From IMG/VR virus record IMGVR_UViG_2693429774_000004, positions 1-15,490 of that record: 15,490 nt of DNA. One strand, 5' to 3'. This stretch comes from a virus. Its lineage: Duplodnaviria; Heunggongvirae; Uroviricota; Caudoviricetes. Position numbers and translations under genes: made by a program. The notes beneath the pieces were generated by a model, which worked only from the letters and a program-made list of their open reading frames with translations, ran no database searches and had not been told where the DNA came from. Within the stretch, counting starts at the first letter, position 1. Every line of letters starts with the position of its first letter. Of this stretch, positions 1-15,490 are shown piece by piece.

Positions 1-22
1 AAAAACGAGTATTTTTAGTCAT
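1..22 (-). CDS. 5' end of an unidentified ORF running off the left edge (begins MTKNTRF)
   Basis: ATG at 22..20 on the minus strand, preceded by AGGTAAACAGG about 8 nt upstream, lying just downstream of the exo stop. Only 7 codons are in the window. The sequence past the exo stop diverges from what I recall of lambda. Confidence 0.25.
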
Positions 23-89
23 CCTGTTTACCTCTTTCTCAGGAAGTTTAGTCTCCAGGATTCCCGGGGCGGTTCATCGTGAGGATGCG

Positions 90-905
90 TCATCGCCATT
101 GCTCCCCAAATACAAAACCAATTTCAGCCAGTGCCTCGTCCATTTTTTCGATGAACTCCGGCACCATCTCGTCAAAATTCGCCATGTACTTTTCATCCCG
201 CTCAACCACGACATAATGCAGGCCTTCACGCTTCATACGCGGGTCATAGTTGGCAAAGTACCAGGCATCTTTTCGCGTCACCCACATGCTGTACTGCACC
301 TGGGCCATGTAAGCTGACTTTATGGCCTCGAAACCACCGAGCCGGAACTTCATGAAATCCCGGGAGGTAAACGGGCATTTCAGTTCAAGGCCATTGCCGT
401 CACTGCATAAACCATCGGGAGAGCAGGCGGTGCGCATACTTTCGTCGCGATAGATGATCGGGGATTCAATAACATTTACGCCGGAAGTGAACTCAAACAG
501 GGTTCTGGCGTCGTTCTCGTACTGTTTTCCCCAGGCCAGTGCTTTAGCGTTAACTTCCGGAGCCACACCGGTGCAAACCTCGGCAAGCAGGGTGTGGAAG
601 TAGGACATTTTCATGTCAGGCCACTTCTTTCCTGAGCGGGGCTTTGCTATCACGTTGTGAACTTCTGAAGCGGTGATGACGCCGAGCCGTAATTTGTGCC
701 ACGCATCATCCCCCTGTTCGACAGCTCTCACGTCGATCCCGGTAACGATATCCGTCTGATGCGTGAACGTGATGGACGTAACCACCGCGACATGTGTGTA
801 CTGTTCCGCTGGGCCTGCCAGGACAACTTCTGGTCCGGTAACGTGCTGAGTCCGGCCAAACTCCGCGACAAGTGGACCCAGCTCGAAATCAACCGGAACA
901 AGCAA
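90..905 (-). CDS. exoD: Lambda exonuclease (Exo/RedX, YqaJ family) homolog with a replaced N-terminus; possibly a pseudogene
   Basis: ORF-track protein residues about 55-271 ([31 protein letters not shown]...FVFGEQWR) match lambda Exo as I remember it almost residue for residue. The first ~54 codons have no Exo counterpart and are read antisense through the O remnant. Confidence 0.8.
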
Positions 906-980
906 CAGGCTGGCGTGACAGTCGGCAAACCAAAACTCGACCTGACAAACACTGACTGGATTTACGGGGTGGATCTATGA
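696..980 (+). pseudogene. C-terminal remnant of lambda-type replication initiator O; N-terminal DNA-binding domain and ori region absent
   Basis: Translation ends ...[44 protein letters not shown], the C-terminus of lambda O as I recall it. The stop overlaps the P start (ATGA at 977-980). O homology begins only near 745, directly abutting the exo homology on the other strand. Confidence 0.7.
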
Positions 981-1678
981 AAAACATCGCCGCACAGATG
1001 GTTAACTTTGACCGTGAGCAGATGCGTCGGATCGCCAACAACATGCCGGAACAGTACGACGAAAAGCCACAGGTACAGCAGGTAGCGCAGATCATCAACG
1101 GTGTGTTCAGCCAGTTACTGGCAACTTTCCCGGCGAGCCTGGCTAACCGTGACCAGAATGAACTGAACGAAATCCGCCGCCAGTGGGTGCTGGCTTTCCG
1201 GGAAAACGGGATCACCACAATGGAACAGGTTAACGCTGGAATGCGCGTAGCCCGTCGGCAGAATCGACCATTCCTGCCATCACCCGGGCAGTTTGTCGCC
1301 TGGTGCCGGGAAGAAGCATCCGTTACCGCCGGGCTGCCAAACGCCAGCGAGCTGGTTGATATGGTTTACGAGTATTGCCGGAAGCGCGGGCTGTATCCGG
1401 ATGCAGAGTCTTATCCGTGGAAATCAAACGCGCACTACTGGCTGGTTACCAACCTGTATCAGAACATGCGGGCCAATGCGTTGACTGACGCGGAATTACG
1501 GCGCAAGGCTGCCGATGAACTGTCCTGTATGACCGCACGAATTAACCGTGGTGAGGCTATACCTGAACCAGTAAAACAACTTCCTGTCATGGGCGGTAGA
1601 CCTCTAAATCGTGCACAGGCTCTGGCGAAGATCGCAGAAATCAAAGCTAAGTTTGGGCTGAAAGGAGCAAGGGTATGA
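977..1678 (+). CDS. Replication protein P (DnaB helicase loader), lambda gpP homolog, full length
   Basis: 233-aa ORF MKNIAAQMVNFDREQMRRIANNMPEQYDEKPQVQQVAQIINGVF...AKIAEIKAKFGLKGARV is near-identical to lambda P from memory. Start overlaps the O stop; stop overlaps the ren start. Confidence 0.9.
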   Translation: MKNIAAQMVNFDREQMRRIANNMPEQYDEKPQVQQVAQIINGVFSQLLATFPASLANRDQNELNEIRRQWVLAFRENGITTMEQVNAGMRVARRQNRPFLPSPGQFVAWCREEASVTAGLPNASELVDMVYEYCRKRGLYPDAESYPWKSNAHYWLVTNLYQNMRANALTDAELRRKAADELSCMTARINRGEAIPEPVKQLPVMGGRPLNRAQALAKIAEIKAKFGLKGARV

Positions 1679-1977
1679 CGGGCAAAGAGTCAATTATTCA
1701 TTACCTGGGGACTCATAAGAAATTCTGTGCGCAGGACGTTGCCGCGGTAACAGGCGCAACGGTAACCAGCATAAATCAGGCTGCGGCTAAAATGGCGCGG
1801 GCAGGAATCCTAGTCGTTGATGGTAAGGTCTGGCGAACGGTGTATTATCGGTTCGCTACCAGAGAAGAATGGGAAGGAAAGGTGAGCACGAATTTGATTT
1901 TTAAGGAGTGTCGCCAGAGTGCCGCGATGAAACGGGTATTGAGGGTATATAAAAGAACATCAATGGGTACACAATGA
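1675..1977 (+). CDS. Ren-like protein (lambda Ren homolog) with altered C-terminus
   Basis: MTGKESIIHYLGTH...VWRTVYYRFATREEWEGKVSTNLIFKECRQSAAMKRVL matches lambda Ren. The last ~12 residues differ because the AT-rich island starts near 1945. ATG overlaps the P stop (ATGA). Confidence 0.8.
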   Translation: MTGKESIIHYLGTHKKFCAQDVAAVTGATVTSINQAAAKMARAGILVVDGKVWRTVYYRFATREEWEGKVSTNLIFKECRQSAAMKRVLRVYKRTSMGTQ

Positions 1978-2044
1978 TGAAACAGGTGAGTTGAGTTCAA
2001 ACTGTAGTACAATTCTCTCCAGTTTGAACAGGAAAGAATATGCT

Positions 2045-2377
2045 ATGAACCCTTATATTTATCTTGGTGGTGCAATACTTGCAGAGGTCATTGGTACAAC
2101 CTTAATGAAGTTTTCAGAAGGTTTTACACGGTTATGGCCATCTGTTGGTACAATTATTTGTTATTGTGCATCATTCTGGTTATTAGCTCAGACGCTGGCT
2201 TATATTCCTACAGGGATTGCTTATGCTATCTGGTCAGGAGTCGGTATTGTCCTGATTAGTTTACTGTCATGGGGATTTTTCGGCCAACGGCTGGACCTGC
2301 CAGCCATTATAGGTATGATGTTGATTTGTGCCGGTGTGTTGGTTATTAATTTATTGTCACGAAGCACACCACATTAA
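2045..2377 (+). CDS. emrE: Small multidrug resistance (SMR) efflux transporter EmrE
   Basis: Internal Met of the 1991..2377 ORF gives the 110-aa protein MNPYIYLGGAILAEVIGTTLMKFSEGFTRLWPSVGT...LLSRSTPH, recognised as EmrE, with four hydrophobic helices and the conserved membrane-embedded Glu in helix 1. Confidence 0.95.
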   Translation: MNPYIYLGGAILAEVIGTTLMKFSEGFTRLWPSVGTIICYCASFWLLAQTLAYIPTGIAYAIWSGVGIVLISLLSWGFFGQRLDLPAIIGMMLICAGVLVINLLSRSTPH

Positions 2378-2406
2378 AATAATTTGTTTCTAAACGACTA
2401 AAATAT

Positions 2407-2450
2407 GGAGGCTCTTATATTTATATGAGCCTCGTTTTATGCTTTTTGTT
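2407..2450 (+). terminator. Probable intrinsic terminator downstream of emrE
   Basis: GGAGGCTC (2407-2414) pairs with GAGCCTC (2427-2433) around a 12-nt AT loop, followed by GTTTTATGCTTTTTGTT. Confidence 0.5.
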
Positions 2451-2631
2451 AATGTCTTTATTTTTTATGTATTCTTTTGTGCTTTCAAGATTATGGCGTA
2501 AGAAAATTGCAATACGATTATTGTTGTATATTCAAGATAATGTGACCTTAATTGTCTTTTTAAATAAAAATTAAACAAAAATTATATCCCACCACTAAGG
2601 TTTATAAAAGCATACGTTAGCAGGTGTCACC

Positions 2632-4158
2632 ATGAAAAAAGCCATAGCATATATGCGATTTTCATCACCAGGTCAGATGTCTGGTGACTCATTAAACCGA
2701 CAGAGAAGACTTATTGCTGAATGGTTAAAGGTAAATAGTGATTATTATCTTGATACCATAACATATGAAGATTTAGGATTAAGTGCATTCAAAGGAAAGC
2801 ATGCACAATCAGGAGCTTTTTCGGAATTTTTAGATGCTATAGAGCATGGTTATATATTGCCAGGAACTACATTGTTAGTTGAAAGTCTGGACAGACTTTC
2901 AAGAGAAAAAGTCGGTGAAGCGATTGAACGTCTGAAATTGATTTTGAATCACGGTATTGATGTTATAACTCTTTGCGACAATACAGTCTATAATATTGAC
3001 TCTTTGAATGAGCCATATTCATTAATAAAAGCCATACTTATAGCACAAAGGGCAAATGAAGAAAGCGAGATAAAGTCAAGTCGGGTTAAATTATCATGGA
3101 AGAAAAAACGGCAGGATGCAATGGAATCAGGTACGATTATGACGGCGTCTTGTCCGAGATGGCTCTCCTTAGATGACAAAAGAACGGCTTTTGTTCCAGA
3201 CCCCGACAGGGTGAAAACTATTGAGCTAATTTTTAAACTCAGGATGGAAAGGCGCTCATTGAATGCAATAGCCAAGTATTTAAATGATCATGCTGTAAAG
3301 AATTTCTCAGGAAAAGAAAGTGCATGGGGACCTTCTGTAATTGAAAAATTATTAGCGAATAAAGCTCTGATAGGTATATGCGTACCTTCATATCGTGCAA
3401 GAGGGAAAGGGATAAGTGAAATCGCTGGCTATTATCCCAGAGTTATATCAGATGATTTGTTTTACGCTGTACAGGAAATTCGGTTGGCACCTTTTGGTAT
3501 TAGCAATAGTAGCAAGAATCCTATGCTAATAAATCTACTTCGAACAGTTATGAAGTGTGAGGCTTGTGGTAATACCATGATTGTTCATGCGGTATCTGGA
3601 AGTTTGCATGGCTATTATGTTTGTCCGATGAGAAGATTACATCGATGTGACAGGCCATCAATAAAAAGAGATTTGGTTGATTATAATATCATTAATGAAT
3701 TGCTTTTTAATTGTAGCAAAATTCAACCAGTTGAAAACAAGAAAGATGCTAATGAAACTTTAGAGTTAAAAATTATTGAGCTTCAGATGAAAATTAATAA
3801 TTTAATCGTTGCATTGTCTGTCGCGCCTGAAGTTACCGCTATAGCAGAGAAAATAAGACTATTAGATAAGGAATTACGAAGGGCTTCGGTATCATTGAAA
3901 ACTTTGAAGAGTAAAGGTGTAAATTCATTCAGTGATTTTTATGCTATTGACTTAACCAGTAAAAATGGACGAGAGTTATGCCGTACACTTGCCTATAAAA
4001 CATTCGAAAAAATCATAATTAATACGGATAATAAAACCTGTGATATCTATTTTATGAATGGCATTGTTTTTAAACACTATCCTTTAATGAAAGTAATATC
4101 CGCCCAGCAGGCGATAAGTGCTCTCAAATATATGGTTGATGGTGAGATTTATTTCTAA
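2632..4158 (+). CDS. ybcK: Large serine recombinase (resolvase/invertase-type catalytic domain, recombinase domain, zinc ribbon, C-terminal coiled coil)
   Basis: 508-aa ORF. N-terminus AIAYMRFSSPGQ fits the serine-recombinase active-site motif (Y-x-R-x-S). Cys cluster CEACGNTM...YYVCPMRRLHRCD resembles the zinc ribbon of large serine recombinases. Lys/Glu-rich C-terminal segment. Low-GC coding. Confidence 0.88.
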   Translation: MKKAIAYMRFSSPGQMSGDSLNRQRRLIAEWLKVNSDYYLDTITYEDLGLSAFKGKHAQSGAFSEFLDAIEHGYILPGTTLLVESLDRLSREKVGEAIERLKLILNHGIDVITLCDNTVYNIDSLNEPYSLIKAILIAQRANEESEIKSSRVKLSWKKKRQDAMESGTIMTASCPRWLSLDDKRTAFVPDPDRVKTIELIFKLRMERRSLNAIAKYLNDHAVKNFSGKESAWGPSVIEKLLANKALIGICVPSYRARGKGISEIAGYYPRVISDDLFYAVQEIRLAPFGISNSSKNPMLINLLRTVMKCEACGNTMIVHAVSGSLHGYYVCPMRRLHRCDRPSIKRDLVDYNIINELLFNCSKIQPVENKKDANETLELKIIELQMKINNLIVALSVAPEVTAIAEKIRLLDKELRRASVSLKTLKSKGVNSFSDFYAIDLTSKNGRELCRTLAYKTFEKIIINTDNKTCDIYFMNGIVFKHYPLMKVISAQQAISALKYMVDGEIYF

Positions 4159-4356
4159 ATAATGATCTCGGATTTTAAGTTATGCTATGGTGATAAAGTG
4201 CAAGACAGAATTAATTATCTTTGACGAAACTTAATGGGTAATTACTTTGTTTGCTCCCACAAGCGAGTTTTGTACGGCTGTATTGGGGTAGTAAATGAGC
4301 TATACAATCTTAATCATTTGTTAGGTGAGAACTCTTGGTCGCAGATTCAAATACTG

Positions 4357-4406
4357 AAAATACGTGACAAATTATTATGAGCAAAATGGTGTATGTCACG
4401 TATTTT
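4357..4406. promoter_or_regulatory. Perfect 13-bp inverted repeat (AAAATACGTGACA / TGTCACGTATTTT) with 24-bp spacer in the ybcK-ybcL intergenic region
   Basis: Arms at 4357-4369 and 4394-4406 are exact reverse complements. Sits about 220 bp upstream of the ybcL start. Candidate operator or RNA stem-loop. Confidence 0.4.
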
Positions 4407-4622
4407 GAATGGTAGGTTAAAAAATAACACCGACTTTCGTAGGTATTACTAATAATAAAGCAGAGTTTTTAGATAGTATCAATGTGCTTTGTGTATATTG
4501 TGGCAAATAATTGGGTTGGGGGTACAATTGTGATTGCTTTTGCATAAACATTGCGCCTTTATGCATAATGAGATAAAGGAATATCAAATAAAATAACGAT
4601 AGGTCATAACAAAGAGGTTTTT

Positions 4623-5174
4623 ATGAAAACACTTATCGTTTCAACTGTATTGGCATTCATAACATTTTCTGCGCAGGCTGCAGCATTTCAGGTCACTAGT
4701 AATGAAATAAAAACAGGAGAGCAACTTACAACGTCTCATGTCTTTTCTGGATTTGGGTGTGAAGGTGGTAATACATCGCCCTCATTAACCTGGTCTGGTG
4801 TTCCTGAAGGTACCAAAAGCTTTGCCGTAACTGTATATGATCCAGATGCACCTACAGGCAGTGGTTGGTGGCATTGGACTGTTGTTAATATTCCAGCAAC
4901 AATAACATATTTGCCCGTTGATGCAGGGAGACGTGATGGAACAAAACTGCCGACTGGTGCTGTTCAAGGCCGAAATGATTTTGGCTATGCTGGGTTTGGT
5001 GGCGCATGTCCTCCTAAAGGAGATAAACCACATCATTACCAGTTTAAAGTATGGGCTCTAAAAACTGAAAAGATTCCTGTAGATTCTAACTCCAGCGGAG
5101 CGTTAGTTGGTTATATGCTTAATGCTAATAAAATCGCAACCGCTGAGATAACACCAGTTTATGAGATAAAGTAG
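4623..5174 (+). CDS. ybcL: Periplasmic PEBP/RKIP-family protein YbcL with signal peptide
   Basis: 183-aa ORF with N-terminal signal peptide (MKTLIVSTVLAFITFSAQAAA) and PEBP-like core (VTVYDPDAPTGSGWWHWTVVNIP...HHYQFKVWAL). Preceded by GAGG. Confidence 0.9.
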   Translation: MKTLIVSTVLAFITFSAQAAAFQVTSNEIKTGEQLTTSHVFSGFGCEGGNTSPSLTWSGVPEGTKSFAVTVYDPDAPTGSGWWHWTVVNIPATITYLPVDAGRRDGTKLPTGAVQGRNDFGYAGFGGACPPKGDKPHHYQFKVWALKTEKIPVDSNSSGALVGYMLNANKIATAEITPVYEIK

Positions 5175-5183
5175 GGTGAGAGT

Positions 5184-5981
5184 ATGCTGGCAAGAGGTAA
5201 GACTAACTTAAAGATCGAAGAAATACGGATGCATAAACATCATGAGATTCATAGGGTTAAGCCTCTTATGCCAGCTTTGTGTCGTATCCGTCAGGGAAAG
5301 AAAGTTATCAATTGGGAGACGCATACTTTAACTGTTGATAATAATCAAATAATATTATTTCCTTGTGGTTATGAATTTTATATTGAGAATTATCCTGAAG
5401 CAGGGCTTTATCTTGCAGAAATGCTTTACTTACCCATTGATTTAATTGAGAGTTTCCAAAAACTTTATACGGTAACTGATCAAATACGTAACAAAACAAG
5501 TTTCTTTTTACCTCAGAATCCTGAGTTAATATATTGTTGGGAGCAACTAAAAACATCTGTTTCCCGAGGCTTCTCAACTAAAATTCAGGAGCACTTAGCA
5601 ATGGGCGTTCTACTTTCGTTAGGAGTGAATCATGTTAATCATTTACTTTTATCATATAGTAAACAATCATTGATAAGTCGTTGTTATAACCTGCTGCTAT
5701 CCGAACCCGGCACAAAATGGACAGCAAACAAGGTTGCTCGATATCTCTACATTTCTGTTTCTACATTACATCGCCGTCTAGCAAGCGAGGGGGTAAGTTT
5801 CCAAAGTATACTGGACGATGTGAGGTTAAATAATGCGTTGTCTGCTATACAAACGACGGTAAAACCTATAAGCGAGATTGCCAGAGAAAATGGTTATAAG
5901 TGTCCTTCTCGTTTTACTGAAAGATTTCATAATCGTTTTAATATAACACCAAGAGAGATAAGAAAAGCTTCCAGAGAGTAA
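5184..5981 (+). CDS. ybcM: AraC/XylS-family transcriptional regulator
   Basis: 265-aa ORF with a C-terminal AraC-type double helix-turn-helix ([21 protein letters not shown]...[32 protein letters not shown]). Low-GC coding. Confidence 0.85.
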
Positions 5982-6045
5982 AAGTGTTTTAAGAAGGAGC
6001 AATTCTATCGATTTTGATTTTGGGAAATCAACACGGCATAATTAT

Positions 6046-6074
6046 GTCACCGGAGCCTGAACAACTCCGGTGAC
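6046..6074 (+). terminator. Stem-loop at the right boundary of the AT-rich island (possible weak terminator of ybcM)
   Basis: GTCACCGGAG (6046-6055) pairs perfectly with CTCCGGTGAC (6065-6074) around a 9-nt loop, followed by TTCTGCG, only a weak U-tract. Confidence 0.3.
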
Positions 6075-6097
6075 TTCTGCGCTAAACGGGGACGTTT

Positions 6098-6199
6098 ATG
6101 CGCACATACAATCCAAACTCTCTTCTCCCTTCACAGATGCAGAAATGCACCTGCAATTCTTTGCATCTAGCGTTTGACCTCTGCGGAGGTGAAGCGTGA
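6098..6199 (+). CDS. ylcH: Small 33-codon ORF upstream of and overlapping the ybcN start (possibly ylcH)
   Basis: ATG at 6098 to TGA at 6197-6199 ([33 protein letters not shown]). Stop overlaps the ybcN GTG start as GTGA. The name is from memory of a similarly sized K-12 ORF; coding status is uncertain. Confidence 0.3.
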
Positions 6200-6651
6200 A
6201 CCTCTCACAAGACGGCATCAAATTACATCGCGGCAACTTCACCGCTATCGGTCGGCAGATCCAGCCTTATCTGGAGGAGGGCAAATGCTTTCGCATGGTG
6301 CTTAAACCGTGGCGTGAGAAACGCAGTCTTTCCCAGAATGCACTCAGCCACATGTGGTACAGCGAAATCAGTGAATACCTCATCAGCAGGGGTAAAACGT
6401 TCGCCACTCCAGCTTGGGTAAAAGATGCTCTCAAACACACATATCTCGGTTATGAAACCAAAGACCTGGTTGATGTCGTAACCGGTGATATCACCACTAT
6501 CCAGTCGTTACGCCATACCTCCGATCTTGATACCGGAGAGATGTATGTCTTCCTGTGTAAGGTTGAAGCCTGGGCGGTGAATATTGGCTGCCACCTGACT
6601 ATTCCGCAGAGCTGCGAGTTCCAGCTGCTCCGCGACAAGCAGGAGGCGTAA
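6196..6651 (+). CDS. ybcN: NinB/Orf-family recombination protein (lambda NinB homolog)
   Basis: 151-aa ORF from GTG at 6196 with GGAGG 6 nt upstream. Central [16 protein letters not shown] region resembles the lambda NinB core. Stop overlaps the ninE ATG (TAATG). Confidence 0.85.
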
Positions 6652-6821
6652 TGGCTACACCGCTTATTCGTGTCATGAACGGACACATCTACAGAGTATC
6701 AAATCGTCGTAAGCGTAAGCCTGAGCTGAAGCCATCCGAAATACCAACACTGCTCGGATATACCGCTAGCCTGGTTGATAAAAAATGGTTGCGACTGGCA
6801 GCAAGGAGGAATCATGGCTGA
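6651..6821 (+). CDS. ninE: NinE-family small protein
   Basis: 56-codon ORF translated by hand ([56 protein letters not shown]). Coupled to ybcN upstream and overlaps ybcO downstream. Too short for the ORF track. Confidence 0.7.
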   Translation: MATPLIRVMNGHIYRVSNRRKRKPELKPSEIPTLLGYTASLVDKKWLRLAARRNHG

Positions 6822-7104
6822 TTTGAGAAAAGCAGCGCGTGGTCGGGAATGCCAGGTAAGAATCCCTGGCGTATGTAATGGCAATTCTGAAACGTCTGTA
6901 CTGGCACATATCCGGCTGGCTGGATTGTGCGGTACCGGTATCAAACCGCCAGACCTGATTGCCACCATTGCATGTTCTGCCTGCCACGACGAAATCGACC
7001 GCCGCACACATTTTGTCGATGCTGCATATGCAAAAGAATGCGCGCTGGAAGGTATGGCGAGAACACAGGTTATCTGGCTGAAAGAGGGGGTTATTAAGGC
7101 GTGA
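6814..7104 (+). CDS. ybcO: YbcO (DUF1364) putative zinc-dependent nuclease
   Basis: 96-aa protein from the internal Met of the 6775..7104 ORF ([29 protein letters not shown]...), with AGGAGGA 5-11 nt upstream. Contains paired Cys motifs. Stop overlaps the rusA GTG start. Confidence 0.85.
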
Positions 7105-7463
7105 ATACCTACAGTATCACATTACCCTGGCCTCCGAGCAATAATCGCTATTACCGCCATAATCGCGGGCGCACGCACGTCAGTGCAGAGGGGCAGGCAT
7201 ACCGCGATAACGTCGCCCGAATCATTAAAAGCGCAATGCTGGATATCGGCCTGGCTATGCCTGTGAAAATCCGCATTGAGTGCCACATGCCGGATCGCCG
7301 TCGCCGTGACCTGGATAATCTGCAAAAAGCCGCTTTTGACGCACTCACTAAAGCAGGTTTCTGGCTGGATGATGCTCAGGTCGTTGATTACCGCGTTGTG
7401 AAGATGCCTGTTACCAAAGGTGGGAGGCTGGAACTGACCATCACCGAAATGGGGAATGAATGA
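7101..7463 (+). CDS. rusA: Holliday junction resolvase RusA
   Basis: 120-aa protein [37 protein letters not shown]...[10 protein letters not shown], recognised as RusA. GTG start. Confidence 0.92.
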
Positions 7464-7600
7464 TGTTTGAGTTTAATATAGCAGAACTTCTTCGCCACCG
7501 CTGGGGGCGTCTGCGCTTATATCGTTTCCCCGGTTCTGTTTTGACCGATTACCGAATACTGAAGAATTACGCCAAAACCCTGACAGGAGCAGGAGTATGA
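7460..7600 (+). CDS. ylcG: Small nin-region protein (YlcG-like)
   Basis: 46-codon ORF ([46 protein letters not shown]). ATG overlaps the rusA stop (ATGATG). Hand translated. Confidence 0.55.
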
Positions 7601-7685
7601 AGTCAGAGATAACAATCAACTAATACTGTTTTATTGATTTTTGCTTGTAATTGGCGTTCTGGTCTGATTTTTGTGGAGTAAGTTG

Positions 7686-8069
7686 ATGCGTGATATTCAG
7701 ATGGTTCTTGAGCGTTGGGGAGCGTGGGCGGCTAATAATCATGAAGATGTGACCTGGTCGTCCATTGCCGCCGGTTTTAAGGGATTAATTCCTTCAAAAG
7801 TAAAATCTCGCCCGCAATGTTGTGACGATGACGCGATGATCATTTGCGGGTGCATGGCCCGTCTGAAAAAGAACAACAGCGATTTGCACGATTTATTAGT
7901 AGATTATTATGTAGTTGGTATGACATTCATGTCACTGGCAGGTAAGCATTGCTGCTCTGATGGTTATATCGGGAAAAGGTTACAGAAGGCTGAGGGCATA
8001 ATTGAAGGGATGTTAATGGCATTAGATATCCGGTTAGAGATGGATATCGTTGTTAATAACTCTAATTAA
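7686..8069 (+). CDS. quuD: Late-gene antiterminator Q
   Basis: 127-aa protein from the ATG at 7686 ([26 protein letters not shown]...). Cys-rich segment [16 protein letters not shown]...KHCCSDGY is consistent with a Q-type zinc-binding antiterminator. Sits at the nin/late boundary. The ORF track begins at an upstream TTG (7671). Confidence 0.85.
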
Positions 8070-8094
8070 TACGCCAATTATTTACTAAAAGTTA

Positions 8095-8262
8095 TTAAAA
8101 ATGGGGCGTTGAAACGCCCCCAAAAATAAAGGGTAATATATAACAGAAGGTTTGTATAGTTAGAAGCAAGGTTGTGCTTCTAAAGGAAGTGGCTTGAGGG
8201 AGCCACTTATATGTTGGGGAGGCAAAGCCTCCCACAACATATCTTTTAGTAATCAAATTAGA
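8095..8262 (-). ncRNA. ipeX: Candidate small RNA from the nmpC 3' region (possibly IpeX-like), ending at a minus-strand intrinsic terminator
   Basis: On the minus strand the 8103-8120 hairpin is followed by ATTTTTAATAAC, a canonical terminator about 140-160 nt past the nmpC stop. I recall an sRNA named IpeX mapping beside nmpC in DLP12, but I cannot confirm its exact coordinates or strand from memory. Confidence 0.3.
8103..8247 (+). promoter_or_regulatory. Cluster of four stem-loops between quuD and nmpC: candidate late-promoter leader/qut region with terminator
   Basis: Stems at 8103-8120 (GGGGCGTT/AACGCCCC), 8162-8181 (AGAAGCA/TGCTTCT), 8187-8208 (AAGTGGCT/AGCCACTT) and 8211-8240 (ATGTTGGGGAGGC/GCCTCCCACAACAT, one bulge). 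The last is followed by ATCTTTTAG on the plus strand. Confidence 0.4.
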
Positions 8263-9340
8263 ACTGGTAAACCATACCTACAGCAACGATATCATCGGTA
8301 GCAACGCCAGATGCTTTCGTGAAATCGCTCTTATCAATCAGGTTGATTTTGTAGTCAACAAAAGTGGACATATTTTTGTTGAAGTAATAGGTTGCACCTA
8401 CATCAACATATTCAACCAGGTCCTGATCACCCCAAACACCCAAGTCTTTTCCTTTAGAATGCAGGTAAGCAACGGATGGACGCAGGCCGAAGTCGAACTG
8501 ATATTGTGCAACAGCTTCGAAGTTTTGTGCTTTGTTGGCAATATGGTTATTACCAAAAACAGTCATGTTCTGGGTTTCAGAATAGGTGGTGGCCAGATAG
8601 ATGTTGTTCGCATCATATTTCAGACCAGCTGCCCATACTTCAGCATTTTGACCAGAAGCATTCAGACCGTTGTTACCGTAGATAACCTGATTATTAGTGC
8701 GATCAGATTTAGCATAGGTTGCACCTACACCGAATCCTTCATACTCATAAGTAGTGGAGAAACCGAAACCATCACCATTAGCTTCAGTTACGTCAGTGCG
8801 GTCATTTTTACCCTGATACTGAGCAGCAAAGTTCAGACCATCAACCAGACCAAAGAAGTCGTTGTTACGATAAGTTGCAACACCAGTGGTGCGACCAGTC
8901 ATGAACACATCTGTTTGAGTCCAAGTGTCACCACCGAATTCTGGCAGGACGTCAGTCCACGCACCGATGTCGTATGCTACACCGTAGTTACGGCCGTAAT
9001 CGATGGAGCCGTAGTCACCGAATTTCAGGCCAGCGAAGGCAAGACGGGTTTTATCTTTGGAGGAACCTTGAGATTCAGCGCGGTTGCCTTTGAATTCATA
9101 TTCCCACTGACCGAAACCAGTCAGTTGATCGTTGATTTGGGTTTCACCTTTGAAGCCAAGACGGGCATAAGTAGTATCACCATCATCTGCATCATTAGAG
9201 GAGAAGTAGTGCTTAGCATTAACTTTCCCGTACAGATCCAGCTTGTTACTGTCTTTATTATAAATTTCAGCTGCCTGAGCAGACATCGCCATCAGTACTG
9301 ATGCAGCTACAGCAGAAATTGCCACTGTTAATTTTTTCAT
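8258..9340 (-). CDS. nmpC: Outer membrane general porin NmpC (OmpD/OmpC family), apparently intact
   Basis: 360-aa ORF with signal peptide [23 protein letters not shown], porin-typical Gly/Tyr/Asp-rich beta-strand composition and the conserved C-terminal motif VGMVYQF. Confidence 0.92.
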
Positions 9341-9928
9341 CGTGAGCCCTTTTTTTTGAACTATTATTAAAAAATGATGTCACTGCGCGATAAATATTCA
9401 TCTAATCAATGTGATTATTTCAAGATGTAAGTTTTAGTTTCTCATTTAATTTGTGAAGTAGATCTCTATTTTTATCTGAACTTTTTCTATCGAAACCTAT
9501 TTATGGCTCTTATTTGAACAAAAATAAACCTATTAGCTAATTTATATTAATGGCTGTTATTTATGGGGGGTCTATAATTCGATGGTTTAATTTAAATTAA
9601 CTAAAAATAACGCCGGAAATTATTTATTGGTTATTTGTTGAGGTTTTCTTATGTATTTGTGGTGGTGTTTTGAACACTCGGTAGCATTCTCATAAATATC
9701 ATTCAGTGGTTTACGTACGTAAAAAATTGGTTATGCTGTTAAGAGTGGTTACTTCGTCACACAGCTTAAACCCGCCGTCGAGCTGGTTTTTCCATTTTTT
9801 GAGTCTCGATATTAGCTGATAACTCAATACCTGAGTTATTCACTGACTCCGAGTCTGTTACGTTTCTGCTTTTTTGCGATACGTTGTATTCCCTCAATTT
9901 ACACCCGCTTTGTCTGCGAGGTGGGGTT

Positions 9929-10144
9929 ATGAAATCCATGGATAAGTTAACAACGGGTGTCGCCTATGGCACCTCAGCAGGTAGTGCCGGTTACTGGTTT
10001 TTACAGCTGCTCGATAAAGTCACGCCCTCACAGTGGGCAGCAATAGGTGTGCTGGGTAGCCTGGTATTTGGCCTGCTGACGTACCTGACAAACCTTTATT
10101 TCAAGATTAAAGAAGATAAGCGCAAGGCTGCGAGAGGTGAATAA
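9929..10144 (+). CDS. essD: Class II holin / pinholin (phage 21 S-like) with dual-start motif
   Basis: 71-aa protein [71 protein letters not shown]. Met1 and Met4 give the classic antiholin/holin dual start; two TMDs. The ORF track starts at an upstream in-frame Met. Stop overlaps the rrrD ATG. Confidence 0.9.
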
Positions 10145-10641
10145 TGCCTCCATCATTACGAAAAGCCGTTGCTGCTGCTATTGGTGGCGGAGCAATTGCT
10201 ATAGCATCAGTGTTAATCACTGGCCCAAGTGGTAACGATGGTCTGGAAGGTGTCAGCTACATACCATACAAAGATATTGTTGGTGTATGGACCGTATGTC
10301 ACGGGCATACAGGAAAAGACATCATGCTCGGTAAAACGTATACCAAAGCAGAATGCAAAGCACTCTTGAATAAAGACCTTGCCACTGTCGCCAGACAAAT
10401 TAACCCATACATCGAAGTCGATATACCGGAAACAACGCGCGGCGCTCTTTACTCATTCGTTTACAACGTGGGTGCTGGCAATTTCAGAACATCGACGCTT
10501 CTTCGCAAAATAAACCAGGGCGATATCAAAGGCGCATGTGATCAGTTACGTCGCTGGACATATGCTGGCGGTAAGCAATGGAAAGGTCTCATGACTCGTC
10601 GTGAGATTGAGCGTGAAATCTGTTTGTGGGGTCAGCAATGA
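10144..10641 (+). CDS. rrrD: SAR (signal-anchor-release) endolysin, lysozyme of the phage 21 R type
   Basis: 165-aa ORF. N-terminal Gly/Ala-rich weakly hydrophobic segment ([20 protein letters not shown]) typical of SAR domains, followed by a lysozyme catalytic region. Confidence 0.92.
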
Positions 10642-11099
10642 ACAGAGTAACCGCGATTATCTCCGCTCTGGTTATCTGCATCATCGTCTGCCTGTCATGG
10701 GCTGTTAATCATTACCGTGATAACGCCATTACCTATAAAGCCCAGCGCGACAAAAATGCCAAAGAACTGAAGCTGGCGAACGCGGCAATTACTGACATGC
10801 AGATGCGTCAGCGTGATGTTGCTGCGCTCGATGCAAAATACACGAAGGAGTTAGCTGATGCGAAAGCTGAAAATGATGCTCTGCGTGATGATGTTGCCGC
10901 TGGTCGTCGTCGGTTGCACATCAAAGCAGTCTGTCAGTCAGTGCGTGAAGCCACCACCGCCTCCGGCGTGGATAATGCAGCCTCCCCCCGACTGGCAGAC
11001 ACCGCTGAACAGGATTATTTCACCCTCAGAGAGAGGCTGATCACTATGCAAAAACAACTGGAAGGAACCCAGAAGTATATTAATGAGCAGTGCAGATAG
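10638..11099 (+). CDS. rzpD: Spanin inner-membrane subunit Rz (i-spanin)
   Basis: 153-aa protein from the ATG at 10638 ([26 protein letters not shown]...), with an N-terminal TMD and coiled-coil periplasmic region. Start overlaps the rrrD stop. Confidence 0.9.
10858..11040 (+). CDS. rzoD: Spanin outer-membrane lipoprotein subunit Rz1 (o-spanin), embedded in the +1 frame of rzpD
   Basis: 60-aa [27 protein letters not shown]... with a lipobox (VVGC) and proline-rich mature region ([15 protein letters not shown]), lying entirely inside rzpD. Confidence 0.85.
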
Positions 11100-11130
11100 A
11101 GCTGCCCATATCGATGGGCAACTCATGCAA

Positions 11131-11424
11131 TTATTGTGAGCAATACACACGCGCTTCCAGCGGAGTATAAATGCCTAAAGTAATAAAACCGAGCAATCCA
11201 TTTACGAATGTTTGCTGGGTTTCTGTTTTAACAACATTTTCTGCGCCGCCACAAATTTTGGCTGCATCAACAGTTTTCTCCTGTCCAATTCCCGAAACGA
11301 AGAAGTGATGGGTGATGGTTTCCTTTGGTGTTACTGCTGTCGGTTTGTTTCCAACAGTAAACGTCTGTTGAGCACATCCTGTAATAAGCATTGCCAGAGC
11401 GGCAGAAAACAACATTTTTTTCAT
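11131..11424 (-). CDS. borD: Bor-family outer-membrane lipoprotein (serum-resistance protein homolog)
   Basis: 97-aa protein from the internal Met (MKKMLFSAALAMLITGCAQQTFTV...EARVYCSQ) with lipobox LITGC; near-identical to lambda Bor from memory. The ORF track starts 16 codons upstream. Confidence 0.9.
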   Translation of the reverse strand: MKKMLFSAALAMLITGCAQQTFTVGNKPTAVTPKETITHHFFVSGIGQEKTVDAAKICGGAENVVKTETQQTFVNGLLGFITLGIYTPLEARVYCSQ

Positions 11425-11786
11425 CTTATTATCCTGCATTGTTAAAAACGGCAGAATCCTATGTGACAACAATTAAACGATAGTTAAATGGATTGATGAA
11501 AATTAAAACTATATAGGTGTACGCTCAGACTATTGGAGGAAGTTGGGGACACTCAGAATCCTGTGGAATGAAATAAACCGGTCTATCCGTCTATTACCCT
11601 TTTAGCTGCGCTGTATCGTCGCCGTATTCCCGCATTAACCATGACCGTAGCCCGACGGGGAATTCCTTCTGCGTGAGTGTGCGGGAATAATCAAAAACGA
11701 TGCACACCGGGTTTTACTGTGCTGACAGACGCAGGGTTACCCTCATAGTCGCTTTTCCGGTGCGATGGTGGAAGAAACCGGGATGT

Positions 11787-11981
11787 TCATCCATCATCAC
11801 TTTGGATTGATGTATATGCTCTCTTTTCTGACGTTAGTCTCCGACGGCAGGCTTCAATGACCCAGGCTGAGAAATTCCCAGACCCTTTTTGCTCAAGAGC
11901 GATGTTAATTTGTTCAATCATTTGGTTAGGAAAGCGGATGTTGCGGGTTGTTGTTCTGCGGGTTTTGTTCTTCGTTGACAT
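11787..11981 (-). CDS. ylcI: Small ribbon-helix-helix-like protein near the prophage right end (YlcI-like)
   Basis: 64-aa ORF MSTKNKTRRTTTRNIRFPNQMIEQINIALEQKGSGNFSAWVIEACRRRL... Basic N-terminus, then a strand-helix-helix pattern compatible with an RHH fold. The flanking DNA matches the lambda right end as I recall it. Confidence 0.5.
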   Translation of the reverse strand: MSTKNKTRRTTTRNIRFPNQMIEQINIALEQKGSGNFSAWVIEACRRRLTSEKRAYTSIQSDDG

Positions 11982-12180
11982 GAGGTTGCCCCGTATTCAG
12001 TGTCGCTGATTTGTATTGTCTGAAGTTGTTTTTACGTTAAGTTGATGCAGATCAATTAATACGATACCTGCGTCATAATTGATTATTTGACGTGGTTTGA
12101 TGGCGTAGATGCACGTTGTGACATATAGATGATAATTATTATCATTTTGCGGGTCCTTTCCGGCGATCCGACAGGTTACG

Positions 12181-12192
12181 GGGCGGCGACCT
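12181..12192 (+). other. cosN: lambda-type 12-nt cohesive-end sequence
   Basis: GGGCGGCGACCT, preceded by ...CCGACAGGTTACG and followed by CGCGGGTTTTCGCTATTTATGAAAATTTTCCGG, i.e. the junction of lambda right and left ends as I recall them. Confidence 0.85.
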
Positions 12193-12369
12193 CGCGGGTT
12201 TTCGCTATTTATGAAAATTTTCCGGTTTAAGGTGTTTCCGTTCTTCTTCGTCGTAACTTAATGTTTTTATTTAAAATACCCCCTGAAAAGAAAGGAAACG
12301 ACAGGTGCTGAAAACGAGCTTTTGGGCCTCTGTCGTTTCCTTTCTCTGTTTTTGGCCGTGGAATGAACA
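12193..12369 (+). other. cosB region (terminase small-subunit binding sites and IHF site) between cosN and the nohD start
   Basis: Position and near-identity to the first ~180 nt of the lambda left end. Individual R3/R2/R1 sites not mapped. Confidence 0.6.
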
Positions 12370-12511
12370 ATGGAAGTCAACAAAAAGCAGCTGGCTGACA
12401 TTTTCGGTGCGAGTATCCGTACCATTCAGAACTGGCAGGAACAGGGAATGCCCGTTCTGCGAGGCGGTGGCAAGGGTAATGAGGTGCTTTATGACTCTGC
12501 CGCCGTCATAA
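12305..12511 (+). CDS. ybcW: 68-codon ORF overlapping cosB and the 5' end of nohD (YbcW-like); doubtful coding status
   Basis: ORF present in the track. I recall a 68-aa ybcW annotated at this position in K-12, but it lies in a different frame across cosB and nohD and the same DNA in lambda is not considered coding. Confidence 0.15.
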   Translation: MLKTSFWASVVSFLCFWPWNEQWKSTKSSWLTFSVRVSVPFRTGRNRECPFCEAVARVMRCFMTLPPS

Positions 12512-12915
12512 AATGGTATGCCGAAAGGGATGCTGAAATTGAGAACGAAAAGCTGCGCCGGGAAGTTGAAGAACTGCGGCAGGCCAGCGAGACAGATCTC
12601 CAGCCAGGGACTATTGAGTACGAACGCCATCGACTTACGCGTGCGCAGGCCGACGCACAGGAGCTGAAAAATGCCAGAGACTCCGCTGAAGTGGTGGAAA
12701 CCGCATTCTGTACTTTCGTGCTGTCGCGGATCGCAGGTGAAATTGCCAGTATTCTCGACGGGATCCCCCTGTCGGTGCAGCGGCGTTTTCCGGAACTGGA
12801 AAACCGACATGTTGATTTCCTGAAACGGGATATCATCAAAGCCATGAACAAAGCAGCCGCGCTGGATGAACTGATACCGGGGTTGCTGAGTGAATATATC
12901 GAACAGTCAGGTTAA
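12370..12915 (+). CDS. nohD: Terminase small subunit Nu1 homolog (cos-binding), full length
   Basis: 181-aa ORF MEVNKKQLADIFGASIRTIQNWQEQGMPVLRGGGKGNEVLYDSAAVIKWYAERDAEIENEKLRREVEELRQ...GLLSEYIEQSG, essentially lambda Nu1, with a winged-HTH N-terminus. Confidence 0.93.
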   Translation: MEVNKKQLADIFGASIRTIQNWQEQGMPVLRGGGKGNEVLYDSAAVIKWYAERDAEIENEKLRREVEELRQASETDLQPGTIEYERHRLTRAQADAQELKNARDSAEVVETAFCTFVLSRIAGEIASILDGIPLSVQRRFPELENRHVDFLKRDIIKAMNKAAALDELIPGLLSEYIEQSG

Positions 12916-13135
12916 CAGGCTGCGGCATTTTGTCCGCGCCGGGCTTCGCTCACTGTTCAGGCCGGAGCCACAGACCGCCGTTGAATGGGCGGATGCTAAT
13001 TACTATCTCCCGAAAGAATCCGCATACCAGGAAGGGCGCTGGGAAACACTGCCCTTTCAGCGGGCCATCATGAATGCGATGGGCAGCGACTACATCCGTG
13101 AGGTGAATGTGGTGAAGTCTGCCCGTGTCGGTTAA
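12890..13135 (+). pseudogene. N-terminal 81-codon stub of terminase large subunit A
   Basis: [81 protein letters not shown] matches the lambda gpA N-terminus, then stops at 13133-13135 where homology ends. Start overlaps the nohD 3' end as in lambda. Confidence 0.85.
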
Positions 13136-13185
13136 CCGCGCTGACAGACAATACGCAGGGGGCAGCAGGTCTTGAGTTATACGAG

Positions 13186-14088
13186 GTGTATAACAACGGA
13201 TATCCAACAGCGTATGGAAATATCATTCACCTGAAAGGGATGACAGCCGTTGGCGAAGGTGAGTTACTCATCGGCTGGAGTGGTACAAGCGGTGCTCATG
13301 CTCCGGCATTTATTCGTTCACGACGGGATACGACCGACGCAAACTGGTCGCCGTGGGCGCAGCTTTACACCTCGGCTCATCCTCCTGCAGAGTTTTATCC
13401 AGTCGGTGCACCAATCCCGTGGCCATCAGATACCGTTCCGTCTGGTTATGCCCTGATGCAGGGGCAGACTTTTGACAAATCTGCATACCCGAAACTTGCA
13501 GTTGCTTATCCGTCAGGCGTGATCCCTGATATGCGTGGCTGGACGATTAAGGGCAAGCCCGCCAGTGGTCGGGCCGTATTATCTCAGGAACAGGACGGCA
13601 TTAAATCGCACACCCACAGCGCCAGCGCATCCAGTACGGATTTGGGGACGAAAACCACATCGTCGTTTGATTACGGAACCAAATCCACGAATAACACCGG
13701 GGCGCATACCCATAGTATTAGCGGGACCGCAAATAGTGCCGGCGCGCACCAACACAAGAGTTCCGGTGCATTTGGTGGCACGAACACGAGCATTTTCCCT
13801 AATGGTTATACCGCGATTTCAAATCCAAGCGCGGGGATTATGAGCACAACAAGCGGTAGTGGCCAGACTCGTAATGCAGGGAAGACATCATCAGATGGTG
13901 CTCATACCCACTCGCTGTCCGGCACTGCTGCAATCGCAGGCGCACATGCACATACTGTCGGTATTGGTGCTCATACGCACTCCGTTGCGATTGGCTCACA
14001 TGGACACACCATCACCGTTAACGCTGCGGGTAACGCGGAAAACACCGTCAAAAACATCGCATTTAACTATATTGTGAGGCTTGCATAA
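13186..14088 (+). pseudogene. C-terminal fragment of a side tail fibre gene (lambda Stf / T4 gp37-like distal domain)
   Basis: 300-aa ORF ending ...[14 protein letters not shown] like lambda Stf, with seven His-x-His motifs. No N-terminal tail-attachment region. The frame is open from about 13117; the track start at 13186 is GTG. Confidence 0.85.
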
Positions 14089-14669
14089 TGGCATTCAGAA
14101 TGAGTGAACAAGCACGGACCATAAAAATTTATAATCTGCTGGCCGGAACTAATGAATTTATTGGTGAAGGTGACGCATATATTCCGCCTCATACAGGTCT
14201 GCCAGCAAACAGTACCGATATTGCACCACCAGATATTCCGGCAGGCTTCGTGGCTGTTTTCAACAGTGATGAGGCATCGTGGCATCTCGTTGAAGACCAT
14301 CGGGGTAAAACGGTTTATGACGTGGCTTCCGGCGACGCGTTATTTATTTCTGAACTCGGTCCGTTACCGGAAAATGTTACCTGGTTGTCGCCGGGAGGGG
14401 AATATCAGAAGTGGAACGGCACAGCCTGGGTGAAGGATACGGAAGCAGAAAAACTGTTCCGGATCCGGGAGGCAGAAGAAACAAAAAACAGCCTGATGCA
14501 GGTAGCCAGTGAGCATATTGCGCCACTTCAGGATGCTGTAGATCTGGAAATCGCAACGGAGGAAGAAACCTTGTTGCTGGAAGCCTGGAAAAAGTATCGG
14601 GTGTTGCTGAACCGTGTTGATACATTAACTGCACCGGATATTGAATGGCCAGTAGCACCTATAGGGTAA
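14088..14669 (+). CDS. tfaD: Tail fibre assembly protein Tfa
   Basis: 193-aa [57 protein letters not shown]... near-identical to lambda Tfa from memory. ATG overlaps the stf stop (TAATG). Confidence 0.9.
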
Positions 14670-14754
14670 ATTCGTAATGATTACCTAAATACGTTATTCT
14701 TTTGTTAAAAAAGTGATTTTGCTATAGGTAGGGAGTATGTTCTTGGATTAAGAA

Positions 14755-14786
14755 TAAAAAATCGCCATGAAAGAGCTTCATGGCGA
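14755..14786 (-). terminator. Perfect 10-bp stem-loop with adjacent A6/T6 tract, terminator-like in minus orientation
   Basis: TCGCCATGAA (14762-14771) pairs with TTCATGGCGA (14777-14786) around a 5-nt loop. AAAAAA lies immediately upstream on the plus strand, which is a U-tract after the hairpin on the minus strand. Confidence 0.3.
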
Positions 14787-15418
14787 GTACATAAACGTAC
14801 AAAATGTGATGAAAGTAGAGTGGCGTAAGCCACTATATTAAGATATGACAATAGCGAAGAAAAGTAAATAACATTTCATGGACGTTTAATTGTTAATTAT
14901 AAAAACTAGAGTGCCCGATATTGTTTATCTTGCTTTAAAATAATGTACTCAAACCAAATTTTTGAGCTAAAAGCTCAAATAATATAAATGCAATAATAAT
15001 GTTTAATAAGACAATTAGCTTGCTTTGTATTTTCATTTCGGAATACTGTTAAGTAACTTTGATGACCCTAACAATAGATCGGAATTTTCTTAGAGTCAAT
15101 GGTCACTGTTTTTGCTTGCAAAGCAAATGTTTTGGTGGTTATAAGTTGTCTTAATATAGTCACGCATGCAACTTGTTCCATGCGGAGATTAAAGATTGGA
15201 ATATAACGCGAAGATGGAATTAAATTACATTTGCAATAATCAATTTATTATTACTCAATAATTACCGATATTATTATTGTAAATTAATCATTAGAGTGCA
15301 AAAAGAAATGTAACGGCAAAATAAGAGGACGATAGCTGAGAAAAAAGCGTGCTTTCCCAATCTGGGGCAAATCACGTCTGAATGACACCTGAAAACAGGT
15401 GGTAGCCTCAAGAAGGCT

Positions 15419-15490
15419 GGTGATGCTGCCAACTTACTGATTTAGTGTATGATGGTGTTTTTGAGGTGCTCCAGTGGCTTCTGTTTCTAT
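15419..15490 (+). mobile_element. IS1 left end (terminal inverted repeat and start of insA), truncated by the window edge
   Basis: GGTGATGCTGCCAACTTACTGATTTAGTGTATGATGGTGTTTTTGAGGTGCTCCAGTGGCTTCTGTTTCTAT matches the IS1 terminus as I remember it. insA appears to start at the GTG at 15474 (V/M-A-S-V-S-I...). Confidence 0.85.

Follow-up and report, generated by a model that had tools for sequence, protein, structure and literature searches.

The cos-nohD-aaaD region of the DLP12 prophage of E. coli K-12 and the nohA-stfQ-tfaQ region of Qin are the closest described counterparts of the locus analysed here. The cos and nu1 of the K-12 DLP12 homologue function in lambda, and recombination between the two clusters at cos (De Paepe et al. 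2014). Among lambda × K-12 DLP12 recombinants selected by the ybcV marker, which lies left of cos, the right-hand junctions fell next to cos in 10 of 19 cases and right of cos in 3 of 19; the recombinants tested were all active, carriers of the DLP12 nu1 included (De Paepe et al. 2014). Terminase cutting of the chromosomal DLP12 cos in situ was deduced in that work, not directly shown. Genes to the left of cos enter phage genomes through homologous recombination, and such recombinants have been measured (De Paepe et al. 2014); in one published instance, ~5.5 kb in the Q-lysis region of phage 434B derive from DLP12, having displaced the phage's own sequence.

Packaging that begins in situ at a prophage cos, as described for docL and passive prophages, starts from a chromosomal site with terminase supplied in trans and runs one way from cosB into host DNA. 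The docL particles were reportedly described by Sternberg and Weisberg in 1975. Terminase binds cosB, nicks cosN, keeps the cosB-bearing end and packages toward Nu1, with termination requiring both cosQ and cosN (Feiss 2015). An infecting phage whose specificity matches a prophage cos and whose packaging starts there yields a tailless particle or, upon a downstream crossover, a recombinant; in the former case the motor stalls on the full head and the particle, lacking a tail, is non-infectious (Feiss 2015). A third group, the cos-type PICIs, comprises chromosomal elements without capsid genes whose cosN is usable by a lambda-like helper; these elements excise, replicate and use Rpp to retarget the helper TerS to a different cosB.

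Here, we describe a lambda-type cos in a virus record (IMG/VR IMGVR_UViG_2693429774_000004), of which the window, meaning the whole analysed stretch of 15,490 nucleotides, covers positions 1 to 15,490. We consider it likely that the window carries the packaging module of a decayed DLP12-type prophage, the cos of which could be used by a helper of lambda packaging specificity, with dead-end particles or recombinant phages as the result.

Results and discussion

Gene order and decay of the prophage

Judged by its gene order and by alignment to complete genomes, the window represents a defective lambdoid prophage of the DLP12 type from an E. coli chromosome. The order emrE-ybcK-ybcL-ybcM-ybcN-ninE-ybcO-rusA-ylcG-quuD-porin-essD-rrrD-rzpD-bor-ylcI-nohD is found in the annotation of a 99.7%-identical genome and of K-12, and the likeness to K-12 DLP12 extends from emrE through quuD, the porin gene, essD/rrrD/rzpD, bor and ylcI to cos, nohD and a stub of the large terminase gene A. 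The closest complete E. coli genome (Z1323HEC0011, NZ_CP148385.1) covers window positions 743-15490 at 99.7% identity, and none of the complete genomes spans the entire window. A prophage at argU in strain 442/2, which possesses complete terminase, head and tail genes, is 99.4% identical over 743-13134, and by this alignment the window is a deletion derivative of a phage such as the 442/2 prophage. Toward the left end, at 76-980, a near-full-length exo runs into the 3' end of O (junction 743/744); the deletion that joined them took out most of O together with bet, gam, kil and the immunity region. An element beside icd in GCA_974490405.1 has the exo::O junction too.

DLP12 is characterised by integration at argU with intD; the window includes neither end of the element, and its relatives reside at argU, at att-lambda or adjoining icd. 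In NZ_CP148385.1, the element lies between ybhC and ybhB/bioA, which is att-lambda, unlike K-12 DLP12 at argU; the nearest complete genomes share this att-lambda location. The NZ_CP148385.1 element is oriented like a lambda prophage, with lambda att cores at positions 3704-3718 and 27135-27149 of locus L001, one perfect and one with 1 mismatch. Further differences from K-12 DLP12 are found within the prophage: P is full length, and the right side consists of a Qin-type stf'/tfa pair followed by IS1. The nmpC-like porin gene (8258-9340, - strand) is intact at 360 aa and without IS5, unlike in K-12. The porin-to-bor segment, 8316-11478, is 92.5% identical to K-12 DLP12, as against 99.2% for 1764-8296. 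At 11478-11770, the window lacks ybcV and ybcW, two genes found between bor and ylcI in both lambda and K-12 DLP12, ~1.3 kb being replaced by ~0.3 kb.

Window 11819-14652, which spans cos, noh, the A stub, stf' and tfa, is 98% identical to Qin prophages, the remainder of the window being DLP12-type; unlike Qin, everything left of 11478 is of DLP12 type. The junction joining A codon 81 to stf' lies within this block and is shared, with 98% identity over 11819-14652, by the Qin of strain S3 and one IMG/VR contig. This distribution suggests that co-resident cryptic prophages exchanged the cos-to-tfa block.

A complete lambda-type cos

A complete lambda-type cos, made up of cosQ, cosN and cosB (R3-I1-R2-R1), occupies window 12151-12345. 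Its subsites are listed below, with bp numbered from the start of the cohesive end (bp 1) in the lambda records PV340536.1 and DE3.

12151-12157, + strand: cosQ (GGGTCCT), packaging-termination subsite; identical to lambda, 23 bp upstream of the cohesive-end sequence
12179-12194, + strand: cosN nicking site; identical to lambda, with the cohesive-end 12-mer GGGCGGCGACCT at 12181-12192
12180/12181 (top strand) and 12192/12193 (bottom strand): predicted cosN nicks
12230-12245, + strand: cosB R3 (lambda bp 50-65), AGGTGTTTCCGTTCTT; T for C at bp 53 (12233)
12250-12288, + strand: I1 region, the interval between R3 and R2; two changes relative to lambda, at bp 73 (12253) and bp 102 (12282)
12289-12304, - strand: cosB R2, an inverted copy reading AGAAAGGAAACGACAG on the + strand; identical to lambda
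12330-12345, + strand: cosB R1, CTGTCGTTTCCTTTCT; identical to lambda

I1 is the IHF site, with its core presumably within 12250-12288. The cosN site consists of the 12 bp and two flanking bp on each side, and R3 of bp 50-65 (Murialdo & Feiss 2022); the role of cosQ is the termination of packaging (Feiss 2015). The pattern GGGTCCT-N23-GGGCGGCGACCT occurs a single time in the window, at 12151-12192 and with 0 mismatches, against a chance expectation of 0.01. The alignment of the site to lambda is gap-free, and the two sequences agree at every base over lambda bp -16 to +52. The 189 bp that separate cosN from the Nu1 ATG contain 6 changes relative to lambda, at bp 53, 73, 102, 134, 144 and 175 (window 12233, 12253, 12282, 12314, 12324 and 12355), of which the C to T change at bp 53 is the only one inside any R site. 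R3, I1, the inverted R2 and R1 stand at lambda spacing from cosN and the R sequences are those of lambda specificity; the 7-bp cosQ and the 12-base cohesive end within a partly symmetric cosN are both present, and the Nu1 ATG, at 12370, is at the lambda distance from cosN. Over a longer interval, 12000-13134, the window is 98.1% identical to lambda and 99.5% identical to phage PhiR34_1, and all phage matches end at 13134. The first-pass annotation of this DNA had described a lambda-like cos with its cohesive end at 12181/12192, and the identity of cosQ, cosN, R2 and R1 to lambda bears this out.

Nu1, the gpA stub and the deletion junction

The cos is followed by the genes and gene fragments listed below.

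12370-12915, + strand: nohD, full-length Nu1 (small terminase subunit), 181 aa; Pfam and lambda alignment
12890-13135, + strand: truncated A gene (terminase large subunit) encoding gpA residues 1-81, ended by a TAA stop that the junction creates
13134-13135, no strand: deletion junction between A codon 81 and a tail-fibre 3' fragment; alignment with lambda, K-12 DLP12 and the intact 442/2 prophage
13186-14088, + strand: 3' fragment of a side tail-fibre gene of the Qin stfQ type; Pfam Collar and Phage_fibre
14088-14669, + strand: tail-fibre assembly gene (tfa); Pfam Caudo_TAP and annotation
15419-15490, + strand: left end of IS1, cut by the window end; annotation and sequence match

The NohD protein covers the whole Pfam Phage_Nu1 profile (PF07471, 1-164 of 164, E 3.9e-101) and agrees with lambda Nu1 at all but two residues, the changes being A75T and L132I; both the winged HTH at the N-terminus and the region at the C-terminus that binds gpA are present. 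No residue differs from lambda Nu1 within 1-74, the segment that contains the recognition helix (17-24) and wing (31-39) (Murialdo & Feiss 2022). The identical protein is encoded by the isolated phages Kati and 2H10 and by the apparently intact prophage of strain 442/2. The winged HTH (residues 1-55, window 12370-12534) matches the PADLOC model mad1, a component of MADS defence, with E 1e-11; this match is a resemblance at the level of the domain only.

A lambda terminase holoenzyme, with an intact gpA of 641 aa carrying ATPase and endonuclease, is not encoded in cis: gpA residues 1-81 are all that the window holds, and the annotation of the closest genome labels the stub an incomplete terminase large subunit. 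The tail-fibre fragment downstream is annotated as a pseudogene without its N-terminus and is 98% identical to the Qin of strain S3 and of K-12. Between tfa and IS1, 14670-15418 is ~750 bp of AT-rich DNA with no annotated gene and no K-12 DLP12 match. That nohD is a full-length Nu1, that the large terminase is reduced to an 81-codon stub, and that capsid and tail-shaft genes are gone had all been noted in the first-pass annotation, and each statement holds up in the window: 179 of the 181 Nu1 residues are those of lambda across the full profile, the stub is exactly gpA residues 1-81, and what follows it is only the tail-fibre fragment, tfa and the IS1 end.

K-12 DLP12 is 98.5% identical over window 11770-13134 and has the same T53 in R3, but the A stub in the window ends ~60 bp earlier; as the stubs end at different points, the two junctions are independent. 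K-12 Qin has its right-hand edge, at 13133, in common with the window, yet carries an additional 234-bp deletion, which took away the A stub along with the 3' end of nu1, and has C53/A54 in R3. The exact A(81)::stf' junction was found in 4 of 5,426 complete E. coli genomes; in a fifth genome, the junction query aligned solely in two joined pieces that spanned a longer interval.

Probable competence of the site for a lambda-type terminase

The cos and Nu1 of the window are almost certainly functional for a terminase of lambda specificity, a judgement for which we rely on the identical alleles of isolated phages and on the published lambda × K-12 DLP12 recombinants. From these we infer that this particular copy of cos would be cleaved. 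Over lambda bp -55 to +200, bp 53 is the only position at which the window and phage PhiR34_1 differ; G73 and C102 are common to the isolated phages PhiR34_1, 2H10 and PhiR42_1, and every base that differs from lambda is found in isolated lambdoid phages.

The T at bp 53 deserves scrutiny, since R3 is the most critical of the R sites and C53 is conserved in lambda R1, R2 and R3; the site might be a dead relic in which terminase can no longer bind or cut on account of C53T, acting by itself or together with the five further cosB differences. The TerS contacts are at bp 55-63, and the damaging changes known are at bp 56, 58 and 59 (Murialdo & Feiss 2022). The contact segment, window 12235-12243, is unaltered, and bp 53 lies outside it. 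T53 occurs in isolated phage 2H10, and as 2H10 also encodes the identical Nu1, this phage pairs the exact TerS of the window with a T53 R3. The K-12 DLP12 cos region, which has T53 as well, works in active lambda recombinants. The allele is moreover frequent beside intact terminase genes: it was found in 90 IMG/VR stretches, in 26 of which a 181-aa Nu1 and a 641-aa A gene follow. With the remaining differences being common to phages PhiR34_1 and PhiR42_1, a cos killed by its R3 change is scarcely credible, and we rejected this reading on the natural alleles and the published evidence.

Direction of packaging and a cos that is solitary in related genomes

Given a site that terminase would probably use, we asked which DNA it could move. 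Packaging from the window cos runs rightward from 12181. The emrE (2045-2377), porin (8258-9340) and bor (11131-11424) genes all lie to its left, and as packaging runs away from them, they are not packaged from this cos. A rightward headful would take in bio, uvrB and moa, to about rhtA, in the closest complete genome, and appY, ompT, cus and the ent/fep cluster in a K-12-like context. Productive packaging requires a second cosQ and cosN in the same orientation, 38-51 kb away; a cos phage depends on two cos sites, and the tail cannot attach where uncut DNA protrudes. A search of two related contexts, Z1323HEC0011 and K-12, to ~55 kb on each side revealed no second cos; a 12-mer with one mismatch was detected at +54.7 kb, without a cosQ. 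Chi sites (GCTGGTGG), sought for a possible protection of the unpackaged left end, are absent from both strands of window 1-15490, which is not significant with 0.39 expected by chance.

These observations bear on the proposal of the first-pass annotation that a helper phage could in principle cut this cos and form transducing particles that move emrE, nmpC, bor and neighbouring genes. Its premises are sound in part. The cos and Nu1 are intact, which makes initiation by a helper plausible, and helper terminase can package chromosomal DNA between two cos sites, the published cos-to-cos units from tandem prophages yielding 1-4 virions per cell. Furthermore, with its cosQ and cosN the site could serve as a terminator and close a chromosome begun at an upstream cos 38-51 kb leftward, one that would contain the genes in question. 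However, packaging that starts at this cos heads away from emrE, nmpC and bor, so that their mobilization from it is not supported; the tandem prophages provide a second cos, unlike the contexts examined here, where the cos is solitary within ~55 kb upstream and downstream; and packaging from a single cos leads to tailless particles. Productive transfer of the adjacent DNA is therefore unlikely, even where initiation occurs. In purified lambda particles, sequencing reads derive almost only from lambda and its own +/-25 kb flanks, and packaging from a cryptic cos is not noticeable; these reads are consistent with a dead-end outcome, and equally with no initiation at all. Taken together, we regard the transducing-particle reading as very unlikely.

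On each sequence feature examined, the module falls within the lambda cos and Nu1 families, and the element differs from a satellite. It resembles cos-type PICIs in being a chromosomal element without capsid genes that has a cosN usable by a lambda-like helper. SaPIs encode their own small terminase subunit (TerS), as does the element in the window. Unlike PICIs, it has an ordinary lambda cosB, no Rpp-like gene was identified in it, and it is evidently a deletion derivative of a full phage. We rejected assignment to the PICIs or other satellites: the window shows no excision and replication module and no integrase, and a cos-bounded unit of capsid-compatible length is absent in two related genome contexts. 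The earlier description of a packageable element consequently fails in the satellite sense, the immunity region, bet/gam and most of O being deleted.

Prevalence of orphan cos-Nu1 modules

Of 5,426 complete E. coli genomes, 4,595 (85%) hold lambda-type cos-Nu1 DNA, with 8,867 matching places in all, and 3,348 (62%) hold an internal segment of the lambda-type A gene, with 4,740 places. As matches to cos-Nu1 outnumber those to A, many genomes hold cos-Nu1 without a neighbouring large terminase gene; ~4,000 copies appear to lack an adjoining A gene, a rough figure in that any megablast match was counted. Many E. coli genomes also carry a potential donor of lambda-type terminase.

The abundance of the module invites the idea that selection keeps the orphan cos-Nu1-A' unit to divert or poison the terminase of superinfecting lambda-type phages and thereby lower their burst size, either by wasting proheads on chromosomal DNA or by having NohD and the 81-aa gpA N-terminal fragment titrate their partners in non-productive complexes. 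The N-terminus of gpA is the Nu1-binding domain. Initiation at a prophage cos does cut viable progeny (Feiss 2015), the count of cos-Nu1 places exceeds that of the internal A segment as given above, and K-12 DLP12, K-12 Qin and the window represent three different junctions that all retain cos. Were the idea true, the module would be a cheap decoy at the level of packaging, not neutral debris. Against it, there is no sign of selection and few genomes share the exact junction; some related loci have a disrupted Nu1, and K-12 Qin is without the 3' end of nu1 and the stub; and a PADLOC scan returned no defence-system match for the A stub and only an HTH domain model for Nu1. At most one to a few chromosomal cos copies would also have to compete with hundreds of phage genomes, in a cell already committed to lysis once terminase is made. 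We find nothing in favour of the decoy reading beyond the abundance of the module and hold it to be highly unlikely.

A model for the fate of the module

The reading that we prefer, a packaging module left over in a decayed prophage, can be laid out as a sequence of events. A lambdoid prophage has lost its head and tail genes by a deletion from A codon 81 into a tail-fibre gene, and a second deletion has removed the immunity region, bet/gam and most of gene O. The module comprising cosQ-cosN-cosB, nu1/nohD and the 5' end of A would have stayed intact through recent descent and not through a demonstrated host function. When a helper with lambda packaging specificity grows in such a cell, candidates being lambda, 434, phi80 or a phage with an N15-type terminase, its terminase and IHF would bind R3, R2 and R1, and terminase would nick at 12180/12181 and 12192/12193. 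Translocation would then run rightward, beginning with nohD and the A stub and going on over tfa and IS1 to the flanking host genes, until the full head stalls the motor and leaves a tailless, non-infectious, docL-like particle. The stall is to be expected because a second cos is absent from the packaging range in the related genomes examined. The genetic consequence that is realised is probably homologous recombination between the element and the infecting phage, with crossovers concentrated at cos, which would yield viable mosaic phages carrying the cos, the nu1 or left-side genes of the element. The integrity of the sequence, the equivalence of its bases to natural alleles, the solitary cos in related genomes and the history of decay are observed here; the dead-end outcome is what we infer from them.

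Significance

A prophage cos usable by a helper has been published before, and the present finding is an ordinary and already known one. Its useful correction concerns direction: the DNA packaged from this cos is that to the right, not that on the emrE, porin and bor side. The relevance of such a site would lie in the acquisition of cryptic-prophage genes by lambdoid phages through cos-stimulated recombination and in the wasting of capsids on chromosomal DNA in some helper infections, both of which earlier work on K-12 DLP12 has described. The importance of the window is limited to indicating, on the strength of its sequence, that a widespread class of prophage remnants probably keeps a working packaging signal.
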